The translations under genes and the position numbers were made by a program. DNA of 63,873 nucleotides, counting the filler, from Phoronis australis (taxonomy: Eukaryota; Animalia; Phoronida), in the NCBI GenBank assembly GCA_002633005.1. It is 8 parts of 8 records of this genome, joined end to end, with 100 filler letters (N's around TTAATTAATTAA, not from the genome) between each part and the next. Parts side by side here need not be neighbours in the genome. Positions count along the whole stretch, not along the records: positions 11,569 to 33,352 come from NMRA01000814.1; 7 more parts are not named here. The stretch is one strand, 5' to 3'. How positions within the stretch are numbered: the stretch's first letter is position 1; the number at the start of each line of letters is the position of its first letter. The notes below the pieces were generated by a model. That model did no database searches, was not told the DNA's origin, and was given only the letters and a program-made list of their open reading frames with translations. This document shows positions 9,628-31,419 of this stretch, one piece after another.

Positions 9628-10564
9628 CTACGTAAAAATGTTTATGTTCAATATACCTCCCGTAAATTGCTACTCGAGTTCTGTTTCCAGAGACAAAAAG
9701 TATCCTAGATGTAGACGTTATAGGTCAGTTATTATGACTCAGACGATGTACAGTAAGACAAATATAAAATACATATACGTAAAATGTAATATCCAAACAA
9801 ACTTTCCTATCACAAATACTCGGATGTCAGATACGTTCTGACACCCGAAGATTATTTCACCCGTCATTACTCAGAGAGGACGCAAAACCTTTCCGTTTGT
9901 GAAGAATTTCGTTTTTAAAGTGACACGTTGTCATGGAATATTGTTCCTGTAACATAATCCTGTAATAGGAGTAATTTCGATGAATCTCACCCAATCGACG
10001 AAATGAACCCTTTTGCAGGTAATTCAGTCAAAAACGGTTCTGTGTTGCTCAAACGTTGTGTGTGAGTTGACCTACCCTTGGGTTAACAGGGTAACGAAGA
10101 CGACTTTGAGGACACCTTTTGTCTATTATTTCTAATCAGTCTGTGCCAATAATTGCCACGTTTCGACGAAACGACGGTTTTGAAAAAGGGCAACACGTTA
10201 TTGTCAATCATGTTTGGGTCCAGTCGTCATACTCGTTGGTAAACTTTGACTCTAAATAAGCAAAAAGAGCTCACTAACCAGATTTTCGAAAATTATCGAA
10301 ATTATCGTTCACTGCAGCGTATGGTAAAATATTTCTTCATATTACCAGCAAAAATAACAACACGAACTTTTTCAAACTCGCAGCCACTATCGTGAGTTGA
10401 GACCAAATAAAATATGACTTGATCAGGGAATGATTCAAACACAAATTTCGTCGTTTTAGAACGCAAGCACAATTTCAAAATACTGTTTGTTGACTTTCCA
10501 AACGAGGCTGCATGCAAGACCATTTAAAAACGACGCAAATTACTACCAAGCAATTACAACTCAC

Positions 10565-10726
10565 CAGCTGCTGTGGGATTCCATGATTTACGATGTACAT
10601 TGTCGTCGTAGTTTCCAGCGCAATGCGCACCTTGTGTGCAACATCTTTGAGTTCCACGTCAGACACTGAATTCGGGTCCTGGACATCAAGACCGTATGGA
10701 GTAAAATCAACAGTTGCTAACGCCAT
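10565..10726 (-). CDS. 2OG-Fe(II) dioxygenase (IPNS/DIOX-like), exon 1 of 8
   Basis: GCCATG start; MALATVDFTPYGLDV...MYIVNHGIPQQL resembles the DIOX_N domain (VDF...NHGIP); ends at a GTGAGT donor, phase 0. Confidence 0.9.
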
Positions 10727-11399
10727 GTTCGTTTCTCAGTTTTGAAGGTTGTATGTTAGCTGAGGTCAAAAAAAAGAGAAAAGTAATCACTGTTATCGCG
10801 AAAAACCAGGTTAACAACTAGGGTACCAGGCAAAAGCTAGTAGGGACTACCCAGGGTTGAAAGTTAGACTGGTGTGTTTTTGATTGCACAGAAACTGGTT
10901 CCATAAGGGGACGCATTGTTAGAATAGATCCTAGGGGAGCAAACGAAGTGTTGCGCGCAGCGATATATTCAATCCTTTCAGTCCTTTCTAAGGCAACCTT
11001 AGCCTACTTTGCTACATGAGCCTTTCTATGTTTAACGACACTTCTCGTCTTCCCGGTGAGTGGTTCTCCGCGCCGTTTGTGAAAAACAGTTTCTATACGG
11101 CCGTCTGTAGAAGTTGGTTACAATAGATTAGATAATTTTGCTTACATCATTGTCTATCCAATGCATCTTGACGAATACTGAGAGGGAAGCTTTAGCAAAA
11201 CAGCGCGTACGAGTGGGTGTACGAGTACTGAACACGAATTGTGTTATGACTTGACAGATGCTGGGCAGTCAACCGATGAACATTCGAGATAGGCCCATTC
11301 GCCCGAGATACTCGGAACACCTCATGTATTTTAGTATAAACTCAAATTTCCCTTCAGAGGTGAACCGATATAGAGCAAGTCGTGTTATTTTCAAGCAGG

Positions 11400-11468: not shown

Positions 11469-11568
11469 NNNNNNNNNNNNNNNNNNNNNNNNNNNNNNNN
11501 NNNNNNNNNNNNTTAATTAATTAANNNNNNNNNNNNNNNNNNNNNNNNNNNNNNNNNNNNNNNNNNNN
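11469..11568. other. Scaffold linker gap (also at 33353-33452, 36455-36554, 45300-45399, 55043-55142, 58976-59075, 62387-62486)
   Basis: Identical N44-TTAATTAATTAA-N44 cassette carrying stops in all six frames; an assembly artefact of unknown true length. Confidence 0.97.
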
Positions 11569-12410
11569 GTACCGTTTTGAGTTCTCTCTTAAAGTTCATT
11601 CATCCTGGTTTACAACTATAATCGGATCACAGGCTGTCGTTCTAGAAGCAGTCCATAGAAATATATTTGCTGCATACTACCGAATACGGCCACGCTCCAC
11701 TCGTGGACTTTGCAAAGTATTTTCACTTGCAACACAGTCTTGGAACAGTGGCAAACTTGTGCAAAGATACGCCAGCCCTTGGTGTATTGCCTCAGCCTCC
11801 AACTAAACAACGGTCAGGCATTCTTCTTCAAATATTTACTCCAGTTTAAATCTAAAAATCCGACTACATTTGAAAAAAGTACTCTTCTTGGCACACAGCA
11901 ATGGACACTGTGGACTCAGTCAGGCTGACACTGCAATGATTAGGTCACGTCCATACTAACTGTAAAATGTTTATGGCAACACACAAGACCTTGTGCATAT
12001 GTGTCACATTTCAGAAAATTAATGGGCAAAAGTTGCATAATAAACCTATTCTAACAAACACAAAGATTCCATTTGTGCCAGATAGTCCCAGCCAAGAGTA
12101 CAAACCTATGGACAGACTCGGCAGTGATCGGGTCAGGAATTCCTGATGTGTTCCGGATGTGACGTGTTTCCGAAGATAGCCGAAGTTCAAAATTTTCTGT
12201 TCTCAAAATTTTGTGGGGAAGTGGGAGCGTGTTTTACACGAATAACTGAAGAATATGGAGTATGAAGTAAAAAGAATTGTGGTTTATAAGCAAACTTTAT
12301 TAACAACCAACACATGTGTATACATTAACTACAACTAAGTAGCTGTGAACCAGTCTCTTTAAATTCTTGCCCCATCACAGGACAGCATGGAGAAGAATCC
12401 CAACCATAGT

Positions 12411-14591
12411 CAGGGCTCGACGCTATTAAAATCGCCAGGTCGCATTTTGCGACCTAGCCAAAATCCCAGGTCGCATTTTCAAAATCCAGCTCGCATTCGT
12501 AAATGCCAGGTCGCAAAATTTTCCCGCCATTTTTACGCGCCAAAATAGATTTTTTAGATCATCGAGAAAATGTTTAGATTATGCTCTTACATGCAGCGTT
12601 AAATACTCACAAATTTCGGATCTTAAAATTGGCGTCATTCATGCAGGTACTGTTCTTCACGACCGCCATTCAAAGACTCTAGAGAGCAAGGCAAGTTGCC
12701 GACGTGAAAGTTGAATCAGTGCTTTCTAACTGACTTGTGCATTCGAATAGCTAAATTTGCGATGTGAAAAGGGAGAAAATGGCCGTTGAAAAAGTATGCG
12801 GGATTTTGTTAGATCTGGCCTGCTACTGGCTCTCATCAAAGTTGTTAATGATTCAAACTAACTGGGGTAATGGCGAGTTTGCTCCGCAATACCTTCCAAG
12901 TACGGGAAAAATAGGTCAGTCACAAAACGACACGCATGTCACTAGTGTTAACTTTCTTTCCGAGGTATAAAACAAAGCCGGGATTTGGTTTTTACATATT
13001 GTGAAAAGATGTTTTTGAAAGTTGTGTAAAATGAAAGTGACACACCATATAAGCTGCGTGACAATTTTAAATAACACTTGGTCGTTTGTAGTGCGCTATG
13101 ATGGGCGCCAGCTTGAACTGTGGGCGCTTCATTGGAAATTCTCAAAATTTAAGGGGGGACTTTTAATAGATCAGTGAGCGCTTATTATGAAACACTTTAA
13201 AGGTAGGGAGTAAGCTTGTGCGTGACCATAGTCGTTAACCTCAGTGTTTGCGGTAATAAGTTATTAAAACGCTGCAATGGCAAGAAACGTTATAATAATA
13301 CGATTTTGCGCGGCAAACTCCATCTAGTAGGGGTGACTTTCTGGATATCGTTACCACCTACATTGTACCCTTTTTAGCCACCCGGAATAATTTTGTTTTT
13401 CACTGCCCGCTTCAGCCGGAACAAGGTTGTTTCTATAGGAGTCTGAACATTTTACGGCGACGGTGCTTCGGGGAGCGAAAAGTTTCCGGGGGAGGGGGTG
13501 TATAAAGAGAATAATGAAAAGTTCCCTAACTTGAACCACAATTTCGTCTCTAGTGCCAGTTTACTTGCAATAGCTGGCTACGGGCATAGAATACAGGGTT
13601 TACAGAACATCGACCTCGGGAAACATCGGAACAGGAAAACGTCAGTTCTGGGTTATATCGGTCCCGGGGCATCGGATCTTTTATAACGGCTAGGAATCGG
13701 AGTTTATTTTCAAATAAGCCAGAGCCAAGCCGGTATACTCTTTCATTTAGGACTGTCACTGCTCTTTGAAGTGGTGCGCAGGCGTGAGTTCACGCACTTG
13801 AATCGCTGGAGTAGGCCTACACTTTAAGTTGGCAACAATGTGTGAAAGACAAATCATATTTCGCGCACGTAGCCCCAGAAACAAGTAAAGGGTTTGAGAA
13901 TTTCAACTGAATTGCAACTGAAAGTAAAGACGTGACCGTCGTTTGGCGATTAATAAGGTTGTCATTTTCACTTTGGCTGTCTTAATATGATAAAAAGGAG
14001 AAGCACATCTCAGTCTAAGTCACGAGTGTCTGCTGGGACCGCTTGCGCGCTAACGGTGCCGCAGTGCGATATCAGGGATATTGTCGTGGATATTTGGTAC
14101 ATGTACATGTAATAATGACATCTTATGTGAAAAATAAACATTTTTGTCCACCACAAAGTTTGGTAAGTTGATCGCTTAAGAATTAGTAGAAACACCGTTG
14201 TTTTGTGAACTTTTATCACGTGTTAAGCAGTGGCCCGAAACTTTCTTCGGCGAATCTGGGAATTTACAAAAAGTGGCCGAAAGTGTTAGCCAATGAAACG
14301 CATCAAAGATCGATTGTGCATATCCCATGTTCACACGACTTGCTTACAAGTCATTGGGAGGGCTGTTCTCGGTTAGTGTTGTTTTGAACTTGGATTTGGC
14401 AACGACCAAATAACGGTCGGATGAACAAGAGCTGCTTTGTATTTGCCAGGAGTCTGTTGAGAAGTGTAAAAACTCAGCTCGCATTCGTTGGAAATTCCAG
14501 GTCGCATTTTGCGACTTGATACGAGCTGACAAAAATCTCAGCTCGCATTTCCAAATTTCAGGCGACCTGCAGCTCGTTATGTCGAGCCCTG
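12411..14591. mobile_element. Non-autonomous TIR DNA transposon with 5-bp TSD (hAT5-like), 2181 bp
   Basis: Perfect 11-bp TIR CAGGGCTCGAC/GTCGAGCCCTG; ATAGT duplicated at 12406-12410 and 14592-14596; CAG(G/C)TCGCA subterminal repeats at both ends; no transposase ORF. Confidence 0.9.
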
Positions 14592-14756
14592 ATAGTGACC
14601 TGATTTGATTCTATCTCCTTCCTTTCTGTCAATCAATCTCACACTGCTGTGCCCCATTAAAGGATGGCGTGGAAAAGAACCCCAACCATAGTGACCTGAT
14701 TTGAGTCTGGCCCAACCCTTTCTGACAATCTCTTTCATAATGCGTTACCCCTTCAG

Positions 14757-14872
14757 AGGATGGCATGGAGGAGAACCCTAATCAAAGTGACCTGATTGAG
14801 CAGGCTGCTGAGATGTTGTATGGTCTGATACATGCCCGCTTCATCATCACCAACCGTGGCATCAGCAAGGTG
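14757..14872 (+). CDS. CSNK2B: Casein kinase II beta, acidic-loop exon variant A (putative mutually exclusive exon)
   Basis: ttcag acceptor, gtaagg donor; 116 nt, phase 1 to 0; [39 protein letters not shown]. Confidence 0.85.
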
Positions 14873-14892
14873 GTAAGGTCACTACCTCCTAT

Positions 14893-14984
14893 CCACTCCA
14901 CGGTGATGCACCACTCTACGGTGATGCACCACTCCACGGTGATGCACCACTCTACGGTGATGCACCACTCCACGGTGATGCACC
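14893..14984. repeat. 18-bp minisatellite x5
   Basis: CCACTC(C/T)ACGGTGATGCA, starting 20 nt after the variant A donor. Confidence 0.95.
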
Positions 14985-15734
14985 AGATGCCAGTCTTTTT
15001 GACTGTTGGCTCTGTGGCCATGTCTCTTCTTCTATTTCGTTGAAGTTTTATTACACAGTTTGGGTTGTGTTACTTCCTTGGCAGAGAGTATTTCTCGATT
15101 TCAAAAGTTTTAATTTTCATGAAAATTTTCAATTTCATTTTGGAGCCCGAGTAGCTTTCGTTTGTGTTGCTGTGGTGTCCTCATTCTGAAGTGTCTGTAT
15201 TTTGCAACAACTTGATCAACAACTTGATCAACAGCTTAATCAATACAGGCAAACTTGGAATGAAAGGCTCACTATTGAGGTTTGTGTGTGAGATAACTCA
15301 CACATGCTGAGACAGACAAGATATTGAATGAATTACAACTCTTAATATAGCCATACATGGCAAAACTTTGATTACTGCAGTCTGAGGTCACCCAGATATT
15401 ACTGTATGTTTGTGAGGGTATTTAAAAGCCCGTTGGTTTAAGTGACTTATTCTTATCAAAATAGCATCTATAACAATTTTGGGTAACTTCCTCAAAGGAA
15501 ACTGAATAATGGGGCTCTGTGTATTAATATACAAAACCCCTCCATAAGGTAGGTAAACAAATGAGGTGAGGGGACTGCCACATTAATATAGACCTACCCT
15601 TACTAGAGTGAACAGCTGGACCCTGTATGTATTTTGATAAGAATTAGTCATGTAGAAGAAAACTGTGTTGTCTAACTGCCCTGTTATCTGACATGTTATG
15701 TTGTGTTACCACTAACCTTCATCACTGTTTACAG

Positions 15735-15850
15735 ATGATGAACTGGAAGATAACCCCAATCAAAGCGACTTGATAGAGCAGGCAGCCGAGATGTTGTATG
15801 GTCTCATTCACGCCCGTTACATTATGACAAATAGGGGCATAGCTCAGATG
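15735..15850 (+). CDS. CSNK2B: Casein kinase II beta, acidic-loop exon variant B (canonical-like)
   Basis: CACTAAC branch site, acag acceptor, gtaagg donor; 116 nt; [39 protein letters not shown]. Confidence 0.95.
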
Positions 15851-16043
15851 GTAAGGGCCTGCATTCTGGTTGGCACAAATGGTGCTTTTATTCCATTATG
15901 ACAATTAGGGGCATAGCTCTGATGGTAAGGGCCCTGCACACTGGTTAGCACAAAATTCCATTGTGACAAGTAAAGTCATGGCTGGTATGGTAAGTGCCTT
16001 GCATGTGAAGTCACATGGATTATTTGGAATGAGTGCAGTATGA

Positions 16044-16325
16044 AGGAGAGCATCAGCCCATTATGTACTGTAGCAGGAGAGCATCAGCCCATTATGTACT
16101 GTAGCAGGAGAGCATCAGCCCATTATGTACTCTAGCAGGAGAGCATCAGCCCATTATGTACTCTAGCAGGAGAGCATCAGCCCATTATGTACACTAGCAG
16201 GAGAGCATCAGCCTATTATGTACACTAGCAGGAGAGCATCAGCCCATTATGCACTGTAGCAGGAGAGCATCAGCCTATTATGTACTTTAGCAGGAGAGCA
16301 TCAGCCCATTATGTACACTAGTAGG
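16044..16325. repeat. 31-32-bp minisatellite, about 9 copies
   Basis: GCAGGAGAGCATCAGCCCATTATGTACTGTA. Confidence 0.95.
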
Positions 16326-16416
16326 AAGGAGTAGATCAAAGCAGTGTTTATTAGTGCAAACTGGACTAAAGCAAGTTAGTGGCTTCAAATCCTTCTAATG
16401 AAGCAATCGGTAAAGT

Positions 16417-16746
16417 ACATACAATCAGTTAACTACATACAATCAGTTAACTACATACAATCGATAACTACATACAATCGGTAAACTACATACAATCGGT
16501 TAACTACATACAATCGGTTAACTACATACAATCGGTTAACCACATACAATCGGTTAACCACATACAATCGGTCAACCACATACAATCGGTCAACCACATA
16601 CAATCGGTCAACCACATACAATCGGTCAACCACATACAATCGGTTAACCACATATCGGTTAACTACATACAATCGGTCAACTACATACATTCGGTCAACT
16701 ACATACAATCGGTCAACTACATACAATCGGTCAACTACATACAATC
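16417..16746. repeat. 18-bp minisatellite, about 18 copies
   Basis: ACATACAATCGGT(T/C)AAC(T/C). Confidence 0.95.
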
Positions 16747-17106
16747 CATAGATTTGTCGTGCATAATTAGCAACACTAACTCCAGATATTAAAGAATCGT
16801 TATAACAGATGGCTCAGCCACAATTTTTTAATCAAAACAATAGTTTACTACGATGATGCTGCTTGACTTGTAATAGATTTCCAAAGGGTGTCTCTGAATT
16901 GTAAGATTTGGGTACAGTCGTTATAAGCAGACAATGTTTGCACAATGAATGAAAAGGAAGTTGGTGTTAATACTTAGGGTTCAATCATGCAATGCATGTT
17001 TATACTTGTAGGTCAATGGTACAATACATGTTTATACTTGTGCAAGTAGGAGAGGTGAACTCTGGATGTTGGAATTAATTTTGCTCGCAATATTCTGTTT
17101 CTATAG

Positions 17107-17182
17107 GTTGAAAAATGGCAACAGGGTGACTTTGGATGTTGCCCCCGTGTGTACTGTGAGAACCAACCCATGCTACCCATAG
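17107..17182 (+). CDS. CSNK2B: Casein kinase II beta exon (first zinc-finger CxxxxC)
   Basis: ctatag acceptor, gtaagg donor; 76 nt; [25 protein letters not shown]. Confidence 0.96.
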
Positions 17183-17452
17183 GTAAGGCTTTTATACTAT
17201 GAGAACCAACCCATGTTACCCATGGGTAAGGCTTTTATACTATGAGAACCAACCCATGTTACCCATGGGTAAGGCTTTTATACTATGAGAACCAACCCAT
17301 GTTACCCATGGGTAAGGCTTTTGTACTATGAGAACCAACCCATGTTACCCATGGGTAAGGCTTTTATACTATGAGAACCAACCCATGTTACCCATGAGTA
17401 AGGCTTTTATACTACGAGAACCAACCGATGCTACCCATAGGTAAGGCTTTTT
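17152..17452 (+). repeat. 43-bp tandem repeat x7 spanning a CSNK2B splice donor
   Basis: TACT(G/A)TGAGAACCAACCCATG(C/T)TACCCAT(A/G)GGTAAGGCTTTTA. Confidence 0.95.
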
Positions 17453-17646
17453 AAGTTGCCAAATCTTGGTTCTTTATTTTTTAAGAATTTTTGCAAAATA
17501 AAAATGTTTTTCACTGAATCGCCAAAAAGGTGAAGAATTACGTTAACTATACTTTATCAATTTTTACTGCTCCCACTAATGTAGCATTGTTGCCATATCA
17601 TTTACCCTACTACCCATGATCCCTCTGTGTCTGTCCTCATCCCCAG

Positions 17647-17836
17647 GTCTGTCGGATGTTCCTGGCGAGGCCATGGTTAAGCTATACTGCCCCAAGTGCC
17701 AGGATGTCTACACACCCAAGTCATCGCGTCACCACCACACAGACGGAGCCTACTTCGGCACTGGCTTCCCTCACATGCTGTTCATGGTGCATCCAGAGTA
17801 CCGACCAAAGAGACCAGCCAACCAGTTTGTACCACG
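17647..17836 (+). CDS. CSNK2B: Casein kinase II beta exon (CPKC zinc ligands)
   Basis: ccccag acceptor, gtaaga donor; 190 nt; [63 protein letters not shown]. Confidence 0.97.
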
Positions 17837-18244
17837 GTAAGATCTACCTCTCACATAAAGGCAAATGTCAACTCTCTCAGACGGTTTTGGTTGATTGGTA
17901 TATTTTACTTACCGTATTTTGTGCCTATTAAAAATAGTGTTTGAATTCAGAACTGATGTAGTGATCAAGATCCAAACATTTCAGTTGATACAAGTAAGCT
18001 AGGTACAGTCAGATATAATGCACACACACACTATTTGCATAGTTTCATTTGCTCACAACTGTGCACACACACTATTTGCATTGTGCCATTTCCTCACAAC
18101 TGGTTTAAAGTATTGGTATTTTATTTGACTCGACTAAAAAGTGTCAAAATGCGTTCAGAAAAGGCAGCATTCCCCTTTATTTTTTGGTTTTTCATTTCGT
18201 GTTTCAACATGCAACTTTTCTTTTGGATGTGTAAATCGTAAACC

Positions 18245-18397
18245 AGTCTTGGAACTGTGACGCCAGCTCTGTGTGAAACACAAGTCTGTTTTTGAACTGT
18301 GACGCCAGCTCTGTGTGAAACACAAGTCTGTTTTTGAACTGTGATGCCAGCTCTGTGTGAAACACAAGTCTGTTTTTGAACTGTGATGCCAGCTCTG
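18245..18397. repeat. 42-bp minisatellite, about 3.5 copies
   Basis: GAACTGTGA(C/T)GCCAGCTCTGTGTGAAACACAAGTCTGTTTTT. Confidence 0.9.
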
Positions 18398-18950
18398 AAT
18401 GTACTGTGATGAGATCTCAACCCCGAATCCTGTATCTGAGCTCGGAGTCAAAAAAATTTTTAGTACTTGACATCATTGTTGCTGGGTTGAACTTTAGGCT
18501 TTATATGAAATCTTCAGATACGCCAACTAGGTTTTTATGCTTGTGTTGAGTTGAATGTCTGCATCTGAAACGGAAGTTCCAATTTCGCTAGTCTGTACAA
18601 AATGAACGATAGTTTCACAATTTATGTTCTAAGCTATGTTAAGACTCTCTTGATCAGTTTAAGTTGTCCGACTATTGGCATTGTCAGCTTATTGACATCT
18701 GGGATCCAAGTCAGTGGTGGTAAATGCTGGCATGTTGTAGCTCTGCATAACTGCTTCAGGGTGACTCCATAGTGTTGACATTAGTTTGGTAGTAAGGCTG
18801 AGCGATGCATGAATGGACACTAAAACTCATAAAAATGTAACTAAGGTTTTCATTCACAAAACAATTTTTAGTATTTGTGCTCCTCTTTCCCATTTTTGTC
18901 TCATTTCTCTCTCAAGTTACTTCTAGGTCCAACATGTGTTTACAATAACG

Positions 18951-19066
18951 TTTGTTTTACAAGGCATGCTTTGTTTTACAAGGCATGCTTTGTTTTACAA
19001 GGCATGCTTTGTTTTACAAGGCATGCTTTGTTTTACAAGGCATGCTTTGTTTTACAAGGCATGCTT
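18951..19066. repeat. 19-bp minisatellite x6
   Basis: TTTGTTTTACAAGGCATGC. Confidence 0.95.
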
Positions 19067-20169
19067 TTCAATAGGATGTTGGCAAAATCCTTTCAGAGTA
19101 CTCAGTTTTGTGGCGGAAGGAGTTTTACTTAGCTTTTTTCTGCTGCAGCAACCCTTTGTCACATTCTTATCACATTTTACCGAAATTGGATCGCATGAAA
19201 GCATAGTTATTTTCACTTCCTAACAGTTATGTTCCTATGGACTCGTCATCCATAATGCAGCATTGGTTTCCTAGCAAAATCCAGGGATAGGACTCGTGAT
19301 TGCATTAAACAAACTGTATTAACACTATGGGCAATTATCAAAGTCCATGCCTGAAACATATCTGTAGGTTGTTGTTATGGTTCATCTGCGATTGTCCTGC
19401 ATGCANCCCGCACACTTCTGCCCACTGCCACGTTGCCGCCTGTTAAGTAATATCTCCATGAAGTGTATTGTAATTGTCCTTAGGTCCCACCTCTGGATTG
19501 TTTCAATACCCTGATTCAATGTGCATCCTTTCCTCCACTGCTTGCTTGATGTAAAGTCTGTCCCCCTGACTAGACTGTACTGTATATATCTGAATTCTGT
19601 CTGCTCTCTGTGCTTATGTGTTATGTGTGTTTGTATTGCTGGTGATGGCTGTGGGAGGGCCTACCTTTGTGTGTATCTCATTTGGATACTTGTGTCACTG
19701 CTCACACCTGAGATCAGTGGGAGCACGATGTATTTACCAACAGATGTCTGCTGAAAGGGTGCTACACGGTTTAAATAAATTACAGGTTTTGGAAATCTTA
19801 TATTCTGCTTGTCTTTCAACATAAAAATTCTCAGTTTTGATCATTTTGTTCTGAGATTAGAAACGTGTTCATTGGGTCAAAACTCAATTGAAATTTTCTT
19901 AAAAAAGACCTCCACCTACTTACGCCAGATAATACAATTCAATGGCAAAAATTCGACCACTTAAGTTATCACAGCAGAATTGATCTCTGTGTCGTTTGTC
20001 AACAAAAGAAGTAAAAAATGTGTCAGATCAGTATAGGAGGCACTAACACCTGCCTCCCTGAAGTCCCGGTCGCACTTTCCTCATGTACAGACCCTCCCAG
20101 CGCCGTCGTGCTAGCGGTTACCGTTGTTTCCCCCTGCACTCAAGTTGCTCCCCCTGTTGTCTGTTGCAG

Positions 20170-20272
20170 GCTTTATGGCTTCAAGATACACCCTTTGGCT
20201 TATCAGTTGCAGTACCAGGCAGTCTCTAATTATAAGTCAGCTAGAGGCTTGTACAATAACACCAAACGATAG
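20170..20272 (+). CDS. CSNK2B: Casein kinase II beta terminal exon variant A (proximal)
   Basis: ttgcag acceptor, phase 2; [33 protein letters not shown]. Confidence 0.93.
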
Positions 20273-23200
20273 CCACGGCCAGATAGCCACGGCCAGATAG
20301 CCACGGCCAAATAGCCGTGGCCACCTTCGCTAATATTCCCTGCGCTTTAGGCAGTCTTCGTTCGCACCGTTTCTCTGAAAACTCTGTCACACAAAGTTCA
20401 TTCTAAAAACGCTCGAGACTATCTTAACGTCTCGCTAAAACTGGCTGCAAATACACGTGTGACACCATTCCGGTTCATATTGTGATCAGGTAGTTCACAA
20501 TCATGTTTTTTCTATTTTCGAGATCACATTGAGATTGGACTTTGTGTGACAGGCTTTGAGATATTTTGGCCTGTATAAACATTATTGTTTGACTCCCCTC
20601 ACATCACTGACAGAATAGTACGTGTGCTACCCAAAACACTTCACTTGTAATCTGGCAAGAGGAACATTAAGCTGTTTAACTTTATGAACAAAGTGCTACA
20701 ACACCATGAACAAAGCAAATAATCATGTTACGTACCTGTACCCAACTCAAAAGGACGAGGACAGAGTGAGGGGAAACAAAAATGTGTTTTTAGGGCAGCC
20801 TAACTGTATATTTCCTTGTCTGAGCTCACTGTATTGTTTCATTGCGGGAAAATTCATGCTGTAGTATCTTAGTATTGAGGAATGTTTTCATAATGAACTG
20901 GACAGACTTAGCTAGAACTCTGCCAAACATGGACAAGCTTTTGACAAGACCTAATTTTCAGTTTAGCCGAATTCTTATGATAAAATATTGTTTTTATAGG
21001 TCTTCAGGCACACTATTGACCCGGCCACTAATTGTTTATTTTTAAATAGACTTGCTGGGAAGTGCATGCAGCACCGCCTATTAAGATTTTGTTGCGATTT
21101 AGCCAAAACTGAAACGAGTTGTAGGTTAGATAATTTAATTTCGAGCGTCCAAGCTTCATCGAATTTCAACATTGTCCAGTTTATTTTGATGACTTCTGTT
21201 TTCTGTAGCTTAATTGGTTGTTCACAAAACTGTGTGTTTTGTAAGTTCTGTAACAGCTAGACGCTGAATGTTTGATTTTGTTTCAACTCAAGACGATTCT
21301 ACTTTCTTATGTTGTGTGCTTGTAAACCTCGTTTTGCTCGTTAGAAACAATTACTCTCCACAATGTGTATGTTGGACTGAGCTCTACTGAGACATCTTTA
21401 GGTCAGTGAAACAATTACTCTCCACAATGTGTATGTTGGACTGAGCTCTACTGAGACATTTTTAGGTGAAAATGACATTGGGTCTAGTCTACACCTTACT
21501 TCATTTACTTCAATGTTTAAAGAGAAAAATTATTTTGTCAGAAGCTACATAAATGTATGTATGGTAAATGTTTTAACAAAGTGGGTTGGCAACTTGGTGA
21601 CAATCATATCTTATGACTCAAGGTTAATGTAGAACCTCAGAACAATGTACAAATTTGGATAACTTGAGAACATGATTTCTCAGAAACAGGTGATTGGATT
21701 CATTTAAGAAACTTTCACACACTGAGTGTGCTTTATACACAGTTCTCTNNNNNNNNNNNNNNNNNNNNNNNNNNNNNNNNNNNNNNNNNNNNNNNNNNNN
21801 NNNNNNNNNNNNNNNNNNNNNNNNNNNNNNNNNNNNNNNNNNNNNNNNNNNNNNNNNNNNNNNNNNNNNNNNNNNNNNNNNNNNNNNNNNNNNNNNNNNN
21901 NNNNNNNNNNNNNNNNNNNNNNNNNNNNNNNNNNNNNNNNNNNNNNNNNNNNNNNNNNNNNNNNNNNNNNNNNNNNNNNNNNNNNNNNNNNNNNNNNNNN
22001 NNNNNNNNNNNNNNNNNNNNNNNNNNNNNNNNNNGGGGTACAGAACATGTCTCACAGGGTTTTGCCTAGCAGAATGCACATTAATGGATTTGTCACCTTT
22101 TCTTCACTCTGTTGAACTCTATTCAAAAAATGAAAAGTTTTGAGTCATTTCTCACCGAATCCCCTGCATATGGACACAGAAATGTTTTTCTATATTTTTG
22201 ACCCTTCCCTACAAAATGAAAGCTTGTTATGACAAGAAAAAGGGCAAAAATACAAAATTGACACTTTTCACCCCAAAACCACCACTTCCCTTTTGATACA
22301 CGTAAGCCAACAGATTTTGAAAGTAAATTTCCTTCATATTCTAAAAATTTCCAACAGTGCAGGTAAGTCACGAGATTTTCTTATTTGTTTGAGGATTGCC
22401 TGAAATCGCAGTTGATTTCTCAGTGGATACTCATCAGAAATGCAACAGGGGGCGCTGGCATATTGATGAAAAGTGCAAACGGGACAAATGATCTTTCACC
22501 ATTCCCAACATGTTGACAAATACAAACGAACCAGATTCAATGAAATTGAATGCAAGTCCTTCTGGGCATACCCCTAGAATGTAATTTTTTTTGTAAGTAC
22601 AAGTTGGTTGCAGCTGCAGCCTAACTACAGTCCCACCTGAGGTCTTGTTTTTAAACCTGTGCATATTAGCATGAGGAGGTATCAAATAATAGGACTTCTA
22701 CGATTTTTATGAAACTTAGAAAACTATTGCAACATTTTTGAGATTTCCTCTTGAGTGTTTATATCAAACAAAATTGAATCGTGTTGTCGATACCGTTGTT
22801 TTGTTATGATTTAGAACATGACAAGTGGCCAGTTCCTACACTGGATTGTAGAAGCTGGGGAAAATGTCGCTTCATCACACCAATTTTTAAAAAAAGATGA
22901 GAACCAGTTTTGCTTTTTTGTTTGGCCTTGTAATAGCGTGTGCAACCTTGACCCCTCTACTTCAAAACTTTGAATTTAAAAGTGACTTCAGTTGACATTG
23001 GCAGTCTAGATTAGCTACAGTAGTGTTTGGTTTGTTTTACTATTGAGTTAAGAGACATCAAAACCTTTTGAGGACGTGACACTTTGAAGTTGCTTTGTGT
23101 AGGCTTCCTACAGCTTGACACACAATGTTTTTTATTCAAACCACTTGGCGCTTTAAAGTTGGGCATATTGCTTTGACGCATGTGTGTCAAACCAACTTAT

Positions 23201-23854
23201 TAAGCCGTGTCTCGAGCAATAATGAATTGTTTACCTTTTTAACCTTAAAATTATTTTTCCCTGTACTATCAACAAGTTGAGCAGCTGCCATCGTGGTAGG
23301 CATGCTGATGAAACAATCGCCTTCTGCTCTTGTCATTTTCATGGTCTTGCGGGATCTCACTTTTCTCGCATGAAAATTGGTCGACTGAATGATACTGTGC
23401 TCTGTTTGCTGGTGGAGACAAATGCCAAATAGATTGGATGAAAGTACATTCTGTTGTGTCTACCGTAATCTTCATTATTTTGTCTTGCTGGTGCATATTG
23501 TAATGGAACAAAGAATAGCCCAATCATAGTCCTATAAATATTTGTACACTTGCAAATCCAATTAAAATCGAGAATTTATTAGCAAATCTTAATATTGTAT
23601 ATAAAAGTAAACAGTTAATGTATTTCATTTTATGACATAGAAAATACAGGGTGACCCAAAAATGACTCAGTAAATTGTAATCCTCCATATTTATCCTTTT
23701 TGGTGACTAAAATGAGAGTATGAATGATCATTCCACAGTTTTAAGGATATAGGTCAGTTTGCTTTGAATTGTATATGCTCCTTCGTAAGGAAAAGTCTTA
23801 CAAATTTTTATGGGTTGAGTTTTTTTGGGGCACCTTTTGAAGTTAAATGCTTCT

Positions 23855-24317
23855 TGGTTTATTTTAAGCAGGGTAACATTTGACCAAGAGGACAGGCTTT
23901 GTATTTAGTTTGAACTGGATAGCATTTTACCAAGAGGCTAGGCTTTGTATTCAGTTTTAAGTGGGTAGCATTTGACCAAGAGGACGGGTTTTGTATTTAG
24001 TTTGAACTGAGTAGTATTTTACCAAGAGGACAGGCTTTGTATTCAGCTTGAAGTGGGTAGCATTTGACCAAAAGGACGGGCTTTGTATTTAGTTTGAACT
24101 GAGTAGCATTTGACCAAGAGGACAGACTTTGTATTTAGTTTTTGAACTGGGTAACATTTGACGAAGAGGACAGGCTTCGTATTTAGTTTGAACTGGATAG
24201 CATTTTACCAAGAGGCTAGGCTTTGTATTCAGTTTTAAGTGGGTAGCATTTGACCAAGAGGACGGGTTTTGTATTCAGTTTGAACTGAATAGCATTTGAC
24301 CAACAGGACAGGCTTTG
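23855..24317. repeat. ~43-bp minisatellite, about 10 copies, with alternating subtypes
   Basis: TAGCATTT(G/T)ACCAAGAGGACAGGCTTTGTATT(T/C)AGTTT core. Confidence 0.9.
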
Positions 24318-24470
24318 AAAGCCTGTCAATAAGGAGTTCCCTGACATTAACTGTGTAGGCCACACCGACACTTACCTGTGTTTATGCTAGGAACGTGGTG
24401 TGTGACAGGTGATGAATGAAATGTTACATTTGTGTTTTGTATTTTATTTAGTGTCCATTTCTGTGATGTA

Positions 24471-24476
24471 AATAAA
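24471..24476 (+). terminator. Candidate polyadenylation signal for the proximal CSNK2B terminal exon
   Basis: AATAAA followed by T/GT-rich sequence, about 480 nt upstream of the distal terminal exon. Confidence 0.35.
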
Positions 24477-24953
24477 TTGTTTGTTACTACTTTAAGTAAT
24501 TTATATTAACTTGTGTCATACTGGTGTGGGATTCATTATCTCTGTTGCTTTATCAAGATAGCAGTTTTACTGGGACTACTTCAATAAGTTCTTGGCTAAA
24601 TGAGCTAAATATCTTTATGGAAATGTCGGACAGAATGAACAAACAGAATTTTCGTGTCGCGGTGCTTTCCATGAGAATCACTGTTTTTGGAAGAAAATAA
24701 GCAGGTTATTTGATTGAAACATTGGGGCTGGTTGTGGTCAAGAATTCTAAAAACATAAGGTAAGTTTCATAATTTTTATTTGAAGAAAGGCAACTCTTAG
24801 TTTTGAAGATAGATAGCTTGAGATGCACAGCAACTGTTCTCAGGTGCCCAAGTATTTAATTTTGATTTTGTCCTTTTCAGACTCTATGGCTTGAGATGCA
24901 CAGCAACTGTTCTCAGGTGCCCAAGTATTTAGTTTTCATTTTGTCCTTTTCAG

Positions 24954-25074
24954 ACTCTATGGCTTCAAAATCCATCCTCTAGCATATCAACTTCAGTATC
25001 AGGCTTCATCTAGAAATCGGACATCCAACATGGCACGACCACGAACCTCGGCTAAATCTCCAGTCTACAAGTAG
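24954..25074 (+). CDS. CSNK2B: Casein kinase II beta terminal exon variant B (distal)
   Basis: ccttttcag acceptor, phase 2; [39 protein letters not shown]. Too short to appear in the ORF track. Confidence 0.88.
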
Positions 25075-25240
25075 AAGCACTTGTTGACTGTGAACAAACA
25101 TGGATTGCTCTGTGCGAGTCATTCTAGCTGCGATTTAAGACACTTGGTTGCTCAGTAACAAGTGATATATGTGCATTGTGAATAACATGTGGTGTACATG
25201 TTCACTACACTCTTATTAATATTGCAGGTTTGAATTGTAA

Positions 25241-25619
25241 AAAGGGATGGATGGAACAACTATTGAGTATTGAGATCTCGTCACTATTAGTTAAAGGGAT
25301 GGATGGAACAACTATTGAGTATTGAGATCTCGTCACTATTAGTTAAAGGGATGGATGGAACAACTATTGAGTATTGAGATCTCGTCACTATTAGTTAAAG
25401 GGATGGATGGAACAACTATTGAGTATTGAGATCTCGTCACTATTAGTTAAAGGGATGGATGGAACAACTATTGAGTATTGAGATCTCGTCACTATTAGTT
25501 AAAGGGATGGATGGAACAACTATTGAGTATTGAGATCTCGTCACTATTAGTTAAAGGGATGGATGGAACAACTATTGAGTATTGAGATCTCGTCACTATT
25601 AGTTAAAGGGATGGATGGA
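25241..25619. repeat. 52-bp perfect minisatellite, about 7 copies
   Basis: AAAGGGATGGATGGAACAACTATTGAGTATTGAGATCTCGTCACTATTAGTT. Confidence 0.95.
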
Positions 25620-30655: not shown

Positions 30656-30876
30656 TTATGCAGTGCGTAAAATGATGTGTATTCCTGAGTCTGTAAAGAT
30701 GGGCTCACTCAGCTGGTTGACCTCCAAGGCGAATGTGGCATCTTCGAAGGGCTTCTGCATTTGCCCGCGACCAAAGAATCCCAAATCCCCACCTTTCTGG
30801 GCTGACCCACAGTCGCTGTTGATTTTGGCCAGATCTGCTAATGTTGCCTCACCCGAGACAATCTTTTGACGAAAAC
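30656..30876 (-). CDS. PIN1: PIN1 terminal exon
   Basis: aacag acceptor; [72 protein letters not shown]; minus-strand AATAAA at 30309-30314. Confidence 0.96.
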
Positions 30877-31419
30877 CTGTTAACGTACATGAAGGATGTA
30901 GAACTTCAACTAAGTCACAAGCTGTACGAACAAAGCAAAGCTGATTTTAAAAAAAACGCTTGAATCTTGGCATGAATGTTTTAATCTCAGCTGCAGATTG
31001 AACAGCTGAAAACGGGACTGTGATAGGAATTTCTGCAAACAATCACCCCTACTTTATGCCTGTTCAGGCATATGTGCAGTACTGTATTGGCGTGCCATTA
31101 GGCCCACAGGCAGAACTGGCTTATATGAGAAACTTAGCCACATGGCCTAATATAGGAACCACATAGTAAAAAAGGACAAAAAAGGCAAGACAAAAGTTTA
31201 GCAAAAATTTCTTGAAAATACACCAAGGAACTCCAGTGATGCAAAAGCAAAAAAAATGTCTTTAGAAGACACAGCAGTAGTCAAAACAGGTGCACTTGTA
31301 TGCAAATAAAATTAATTCATGAGCTTATGCAGGGGACATTGCCTACTTCGGCTTATATACCAAATTTAGGTGCATACACCAAAATGCAAACCACTTAGGT
31401 GTAAAAATGATGTGAAAAA

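Follow-up and report, generated by a model that had tools for sequence, protein, structure and literature searches.

The analysed window, a stretch of 63,873 nucleotides (nt; filler included) from the phoronid Phoronis australis (GCA_002633005.1), carries a gene for CK2beta, the protein kinase CK2's regulatory subunit, in which the fourth exon and the last exon are each present in two versions. The two versions of exon 4 are called A and B here, and the proximal and distal last exons TA and TB. The CK2beta exons lie on one contig, spanning positions 11569-33352 of the window, and residues are numbered as in the human chain. The parts of the gene found, all on the plus strand, are listed below.

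14757..14872 (+): exon 4A, alternative and regulated, residues 59-97; AG/GT splice sites, PF01214 match above the cut-off, reads joining A to exon 5
15735..15850 (+): exon 4B, the canonical version, found in every one of the three RNA read sets; AG/GT sites, reads joining B to exon 5, 38/38 amino acids matching mollusc and nemertean proteins
17107..17182 (+): exon 5, 76 nt, single copy, with the first two zinc-finger Cys; AG/GT sites, reads, tblastn
17647..17836 (+): exon 6, 190 nt, single copy, with the last two zinc-finger Cys; AG/GT sites, reads, Pfam, tblastn
20170..20272 (+): TA, coding part with stop, encoding a tail of the arthropod/mollusc/chordate type; reads joining exon 6 to TA, tail scores
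20273..24490 (+): 3′ untranslated region (UTR) of TA, about 4.2 kb, spanning a gap of 286 N; read depth, with the end inferred from AATAAA at 24471
24954..25074 (+): TB, coding part with stop, encoding an Arg/Ser-rich tail; reads joining exon 6 to TB, tail scores
25075..25600 (+): 3′ UTR of TB, reaching at least 25600; read depth 34-73 in 25141-25600

The exons, splice sites, reading frames and conserved cores with many synonymous changes were as described in the first-pass annotation of this DNA, made from the sequence alone. Comparison of two full-length homologues with the window by tblastn gave two matches to exon 4, one to exon 5, one to exon 6 and two to last exons, and no match to exons 1-3 (residues 1-58). 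Exons 5 and 6, with one match each, are single copy, as had been stated, and they hold the four-Cys zinc finger, whose positions are 109, 114, 137 and 140 (available part of PMC9608649). The Pfam domain PF01214 (CK_II_beta) scored 33.5 bits in exon A, 36.7 in exon B and 72.9 in exon 6, at a cut-off of 27. Of the two gaps assumed in that annotation, 21749-22034 is real (286 N), whereas 11469-11568 is one of seven identical joiners (N44-stop-spacer-N44) between separate contigs; therefore exons 1-3, in which the N-terminal autophosphorylation site would be encoded, lie off the contig. The stretch from exon A to TA contains no gap apart from one N.

Exons 4A and 4B are homologous neighbours of equal length (116 nt each) and identical phase, each with its own AG/GT sites. 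They share 87/116 nt and 30/38 amino acids, and the proportion of differences is 0.78 at synonymous sites (pS) versus 0.115 at nonsynonymous sites (pN). Their 22-codon core shows 10 silent changes and no replacement. The first 17 codons of TA and TB encode identical peptides; their roughly 10.5 synonymous sites carry about 11 synonymous differences. The saturated silent sites and the conserved core identify the exon copies as products of an old duplication under purifying selection rather than of chance or an assembly repeat.

Expression was analysed in three raw-read runs of one study with a matching species label (X1, X2 and X3), of which approximately 18-19% each was sampled, and in a contig set (X4). 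Spliced reads joined exon A to exon 5 (10, 12 and 0 reads in X1, X2 and X3, respectively, an order kept below), exon B to exon 5 (19, 12 and 6) and exon 5 to exon 6 (26, 37 and 24), and the donor of exon 6 was spliced to TA (14, 10 and 0) as well as to TB (24, 27 and 15), each terminal exon having its own stop and separate UTR coverage. No joint between A and B was listed for X1-X3 at the threshold of 3 reads, at which the joint table is complete. Reads overrunning the 5′ end were found at exon A (5, 15 and 0) and exon B (17, 19 and 16, and an X4 contig), and their overhangs correspond to one common 30-nt sequence, the end of CK2beta exon 3 (agreement 0.99-1.0). A and B thus have the same flanking exons, one upstream exon 3 and exons 5-6 downstream, without a listed joint between them, as mutually exclusive exons do, and a hidden paralogue is unnecessary. 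Transcripts with variant A and transcripts with terminal B both exist, and the proposal of one gene with two exon duplications, both choices being used in mRNA, was borne out by the junction reads and the common exon 3. In X1, about ten reads also overran the donor of exon A into an 18-nt repeat (14873-15043), with the frame open to 15043; such reads were nearly absent from X2, and intron retention or slow splicing are possible explanations.

The depth per bin in X1 and X2 was approximately 7-29 over 20461-24204, before as well as after the 286-N gap, compared with 0-2.4 in X3, and it dropped in 24205-24672, the bin with the sole AATAAA (24471). The UTR of TA is therefore about 4.2 kb long, and its poly(A) site was placed according to this AATAAA.

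Two sets of exons might also belong to two paralogous CK2beta genes, collapsed or hidden by a gap, one owning A and TA and the other B and TB. Such a pair would agree with the occurrence of A, TA and a variant at 17157 in X1 and X2 and of none of them in X3, and with the location of exons 1-3 off the contig. Yet the same exon-3 end precedes A and B, and no gap interrupts the sequence that holds A, B, exon 5, exon 6 and TA (one N aside). Exons 5-6 show one variant site per run (the synonymous polymorphism at 17157 lies in exon 5), although the silent sites of A and B are saturated; the variant fraction (24/38, 21/43) fits a heterozygote and in X1 differs from the fraction of A (p = 0.027). Neither suspected gap holds a second CK2beta gene, 11469-11568 being a joiner and 21749-22034 lying inside the transcribed 3′ UTR of TA. 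This explanation is largely refuted and we consider it extremely improbable. The single-gene CK2beta architecture is real and expressed, of which we are practically certain.

Every read set contained B and TB; A and TA were confined to X1 and X2. The share of TA was 0/15 in X3 versus 24/75 in X1 and X2 together (p = 0.009), and the share of A was 0/16 versus 20/56 at the upstream joint (p = 0.004) and 0/6 versus 22/53 at the downstream one (p = 0.075), where upstream and downstream counts may come from shared fragments. The fractions in X1 agree (0.29-0.34 for A and 0.37 for TA). A and TA are likely co-regulated. Several observations weigh against a close connection: in X2, the fraction of A (0.47-0.50) exceeds that of TA (0.27; p = 0.08-0.10); the coupling is based on three samples from one study with the tissue unstated; and the genotype of X3 is different as well (17157, 17783), so that individual, sex and stage are confounded with the absence of A and TA. 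Were the two choices independent, four isoforms would result and the joint absence from X3 would reflect two events that are on in the same tissue. The diverging fractions in X2 speak for independence and the counts are compatible with both 2x2 and two-state use, but the matching fractions in X1 and the loss of both exons in X3 speak against it, and we give it slightly less than an even chance. Strict coupling of A with TA is, in our judgement, evenly balanced between true and false. RNA pairing of the docking-site/selector kind was looked for and no pair of arms tied both exons to one site, the best candidate being an intronic 21-nt hairpin. A 21-nt inverted repeat, 95% complementary, lies in the A-B intron (15443-15463 with 15630-15650); it is either a relic of a small mobile element or a splicing hairpin.

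The first-pass annotation had proposed that splicing diversifies both the acidic loop and the CK2alpha-binding segment. For the acidic loop this holds in part. Exon A alters the stretches 59-64 (Glu59, Gly61, Met62 and Glu64) and 87-97 (Phe87, Ile89, Ser95, Lys96 and Val97). Among 350 homologue segments with ungapped spacing, taken from 407 found and including many near-identical or unnamed ones, position 61 of the acidic loop was Asp or Glu in 347 and Gly in none, and Ile89 and Lys96 were each present in 0/350. The net charge is -4 for exon A and -6 for exon B. Because the action of polyamines (at Glu60/61/63) and the formation of autoinhibitory oligomers have been assigned to the acidic loop (available part of PMC8533506), exon A is predicted to weaken the control exerted there.

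The CK2alpha-binding segment turned out not to be diversified. The interface with CK2alpha comprises residues 186-198, with Tyr188 and Phe190 (available part of PMC9608649). Residues 187-203, which span it, are identical in TA and TB, including the hairpin with these two residues, and the tails differ only after 203: that of TA has 16 residues (net charge +4) and that of TB 22 (net charge +6). A Ser-Pro motif near the end is present in TB only. The portions of the protein that vary are likely disordered. CDK1 acts on Ser209 of human CK2beta. Ser209 and Thr213 are given as phosphosites of the human protein in the available part of PMC9608649.

Compared at the peptide level, TA and TB appear as members of two kinds of tail between which the animal kingdom is divided, which the earlier description had missed. 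From 432 fetched proteins, 59 with names were chosen, roughly one for each species. An Arg/Ser-rich tail closing with Lys-x-x-Tyr-Lys or similar was found in sponges, cnidarians, acoels, hemichordates, echinoderms, a nemertean isoform and a rotifer isoform, and a tail opening with Asn-Phe-Lys-x-Pro-x-Arg in chordates, arthropods, molluscs, an annelid, flatworms and a nematomorph. By motif, 22 of the 59 proteins were of the TA type, 21 of the TB type and 16 of neither. The TA type was seen in 0/16 sponge, placozoan, cnidarian and acoel rows and 0/11 ambulacrarian rows, the TB type in 0/6 chordate, 0/8 arthropod and 0/7 mollusc and annelid rows. Tail scores were tested against 1000 composition-preserving shuffles. 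The TB of the window reached z 5.3 against sponges and cnidarians and 5.7 against ambulacrarians, and in this test it showed no match to arthropods, molluscs or chordates. TA reached z 5.2 against arthropods, 5.8 against molluscs and the annelid and 4.4 against flatworms. In the tree of last exons (57 peptides, 4 rows dropped, 38 columns), TA and TB fell on either side of the branch that separates the types (95/86).

As TA and TB match the tail types of different phyla, the duplication of the last exon likely predates the split of chordates and protostomes, an age that we accept with considerable confidence. In the simplest reading, TB would be the ancestral animal exon and TA would have arisen from it by tandem duplication before this split. 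Some results count against so old an origin. The tail motifs were set post hoc, after the data had been inspected; TA scored only z 1.6 against chordates, which are connected to it by way of arthropods and molluscs (amphioxus and mammal tails reach z 4-7 against these); and the tree, built on no more than 38 columns, puts Oikopleura in the wrong place. The approximately unbiased (AU) test (52 rows, 9 dropped) did not reject TA and TB as sisters of younger origin (p = 0.181). This last result would suit a spiralian origin of both duplications, in which the likeness of TB to sponge, cnidarian and ambulacrarian tails would reflect convergence towards a basic composition rich in Arg and Ser. So would the identity of 187-203 in TA and TB, the short tails of low complexity and the readiness with which this genome forms tandem copies across exon borders. 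However, the observed score was reached by 0/1000 shuffles for sponges plus cnidarians and by 1/1000 for ambulacrarians, the tail type of TB recurs in nemertean and rotifer proteins, and with TB old, the TA type would have to have arisen twice, given the z values linking chordate to arthropod and mollusc tails. Convergence of spiralian exons is therefore regarded as unlikely, and the duplication before the chordate-protostome split is preferred.

Most lineages are annotated with one tail exon, and absence from an annotation is not absence from a genome. Diadema and Strongylocentrotus each have two alternative CK2beta last exons, and the fetched holothurian records have the second type only; this second urchin exon has the length of TA and a similar end, with no significant score to either tail type. 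A search with TB gave 20 matches of 22 candidates, and the approximately 13 inspected tails were mostly of the TA type; it was uninformative, because the matches came through the 17 residues common to TA and TB. Magallana K1PN44 and C. virginica X2, considered as TB tails, were rejected as fusions to an unrelated gene. The CK2beta tails of tardigrades, excluded from the tree, are long and TB-like, with an Arg-rich stretch followed by Lys-Ser-Pro. If they are homologous to TB, this exon also survives in ecdysozoans.

Exon 4B is identical over all 38 amino acids to exon 4 of molluscs and nemerteans; exons 4B and 5 place the animal among the lophotrochozoans. The gene models of Pomacea and Nucella contain a variant exon 4 directly 5′ of the canonical one, and the CK2beta isoform X2 of Octopus sinensis uses such a variant. 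The alternative exon of molluscs has one codon fewer than exon A, and a single origin of both was neither shown nor rejected in the AU test (p = 0.28). In the tree of exon 4, in which 2/26 branches were starred, A grouped weakly (87/79) with ambulacrarian and mite exons. An ambulacrarian exon with Glu64 and Phe87 is a candidate relative of exon A, as are the mollusc variants. Apparent exon-4 duplications in the best double-scoring arthropod matches (Timema, Leptosia, Nymphon and Notodromas) were rejected as fused or tandem whole-gene models; the fused models indicate tandem whole-gene duplicates of CK2beta in several arthropods.

Human CK2beta is not known to have such an exon-4 pair. Jauch et al. 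2006, known to us via a review, reportedly described the Drosophila CK2beta isoforms VIIa-d and VII-VI. According to the available part of this 2016 review (PMC5374408), these five isoforms of the D. melanogaster CK2beta unit differ in their tails alone and are non-redundant in vivo, and such diversity was unreported in metazoans other than Drosophila. As in the fly unit, the phoronid has one gene with several C-terminal tails and an unchanged core and CK2alpha binding; but in the fly isoforms the last 15-20 residues differ, whereas in the phoronid the whole last exon is duplicated, and only the phoronid gene has a mutually exclusive acidic-loop exon as well. The fetched fly proteins share a tail start of the TA type, whereas the phoronid TB is of the non-bilaterian type. 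The first-pass annotation had drawn a parallel with the testis-type paralogues; on comparison, the closest fly counterpart is the set of tail isoforms of the main Dm-CK2beta gene.

It might still be supposed that A and TA make up a germ-line or testis isoform like CK2beta′ or CK2beta-Tes. A UTR of 4.2 kb is more typical of neural than of testis isoforms. TA is a conserved mainstream protostome tail rather than a fast-evolving one, and the read sets of unstated tissue give the idea no support. In its favour, the fly testis-type subunits, like exon A, have a less acidic loop (PMC5374408, available part). In the same source, CK2beta′, SSL/CK2beta-Tes and Stellate are separate genes, whole-gene paralogues with altered N-termini, unlike the one phoronid gene, in which exons 3, 5 and 6 are shared. 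A testis role for A and TA seems improbable to us.

Frameshifting is the commonest class of mutually exclusive exons in the available part of Hatje et al. 2017 (PMC5740500), and like the exons treated there, A and B are equal in length and phase, have a length not divisible by three and include one ubiquitous and one regulated member. CSNK2B does not occur in the main text of that paper, as far as available. A second exon 4, as here, is found in the models of Octopus sinensis (isoforms X1/X2), Pomacea and Nucella, and two last exons, as here, in the isoforms of Diadema and Strongylocentrotus; automated annotations thus already contain parts of the pattern in octopus and urchins. Both duplications together occur in none of the fetched records. 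No description of a mutually exclusive CK2beta exon or of two tail types was found in the literature searched, which largely excluded subscription journals and did not cover supplements. The splicing mechanisms are of known kinds; their combination and the history of the tails appear undescribed.

The surroundings of the exons are rich in repeats, of which two blocks lie directly upstream of exon A.

12411..14591 (no strand assigned): multi-copy DNA transposon, located in intron 3 and bounded by terminal inverted repeats of about 11 nt; 5-nt target duplication
14592..14756 (+): exon-4A acceptor region repeated in tandem as 96-nt units, degenerate and frame-broken, with no joints listed

The 2.2-kb transposon, a candidate hAT5-like element, interrupts a degenerate exon-4A acceptor copy and separates off a further copy at about 12340-12411; it is not part of the splicing unit. 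Its reads are abundant, come from both strands and have many unlike flanks at both ends. Tandem repeats extend over exon borders at 14592-14797 (A acceptor, 96 nt), 15851-16000 (B donor), 17152-17451 (seven 43-nt copies of the exon-5 donor) and 24816-24965 (a 73-nt copy of the TB acceptor). No joints at decoy splice sites within them were listed from the RNA reads at the threshold of 3. On the same contig, convergent with CK2beta, lies the last exon of a parvulin/Pin1-type prolyl isomerase gene (30656-30946, minus strand; Rotamase, E 9e-19), and the preceding contig carries the first exon of a 2-oxoglutarate/Fe(II) dioxygenase-like gene (10475-10735, minus strand; DIOX_N, below the cut-off).

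We consider it probable that one CK2beta gene chooses between 4A and 4B and between TA and TB, the last exons likely being older than the chordate-protostome split. The length of 116 nt leaves a remainder of 2 on division by three, and inclusion of A together with B meets stops in B. Because both or neither of the exons would shift the frame, their exclusivity likely depends on regulated splice-site choice plus nonsense-mediated decay; the A-B intron has 862 nt and U2-type donors, hence neither a steric nor a U12 block is involved. Regulated choice would select A or B, with decay removing errors; the use of TA would depend on cleavage of the transcript at the poly(A) site belonging to TA, about 4.2 kb downstream, through which TB would be lost. 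Both A and TA are probably turned on by a single cell-type or stage programme. All products would retain the unchanged zinc-finger dimer and the CK2alpha-binding hairpin. Exon A, with Gly61 and a charge of -4 instead of -6, is predicted to weaken the acidic loop and so to loosen autoinhibition and the polyamine response, and the exchange of tails may alter partners, phosphorylation (Ser-Pro in TB only) and higher-order assembly, as proposed for the fly tails. In a bolder scheme, TB would be the original animal tail, the human tail would derive from the younger TA and the phoronid would retain the ancestral bilaterian switch, with A and TA spliced together in a cell-type-specific, less autoinhibited form, while chordates fixed B with TA and ambulacrarians an A-like exon with TB; as a whole, this seems rather unlikely.

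CK2 is constitutively active, its regulation is a long-standing question and CK2beta outside flies is usually seen as one invariant protein. The phoronid gene provides matched variants of two flexible regulatory parts, the acidic loop and the tail past the CK2alpha interface, on an unchanged core, and four defined CK2beta proteins can be compared directly. It also joins two tail types otherwise found in different phyla: the CK2beta ends of cnidarians, sponges and echinoderms would differ from those of human and fly because they represent the two tail types of a duplicated last exon. The presence or absence of TA and TB would be a cheap character for early bilaterian evolution. If TA is truly absent from echinoderms, hemichordates and xenacoelomorphs, it would, as a rare genomic character, group chordates together with protostomes, in the setting of the debate on deuterostome monophyly (available parts of PMC7978419 and bioRxiv 10.1101/2025.01.13.632777).

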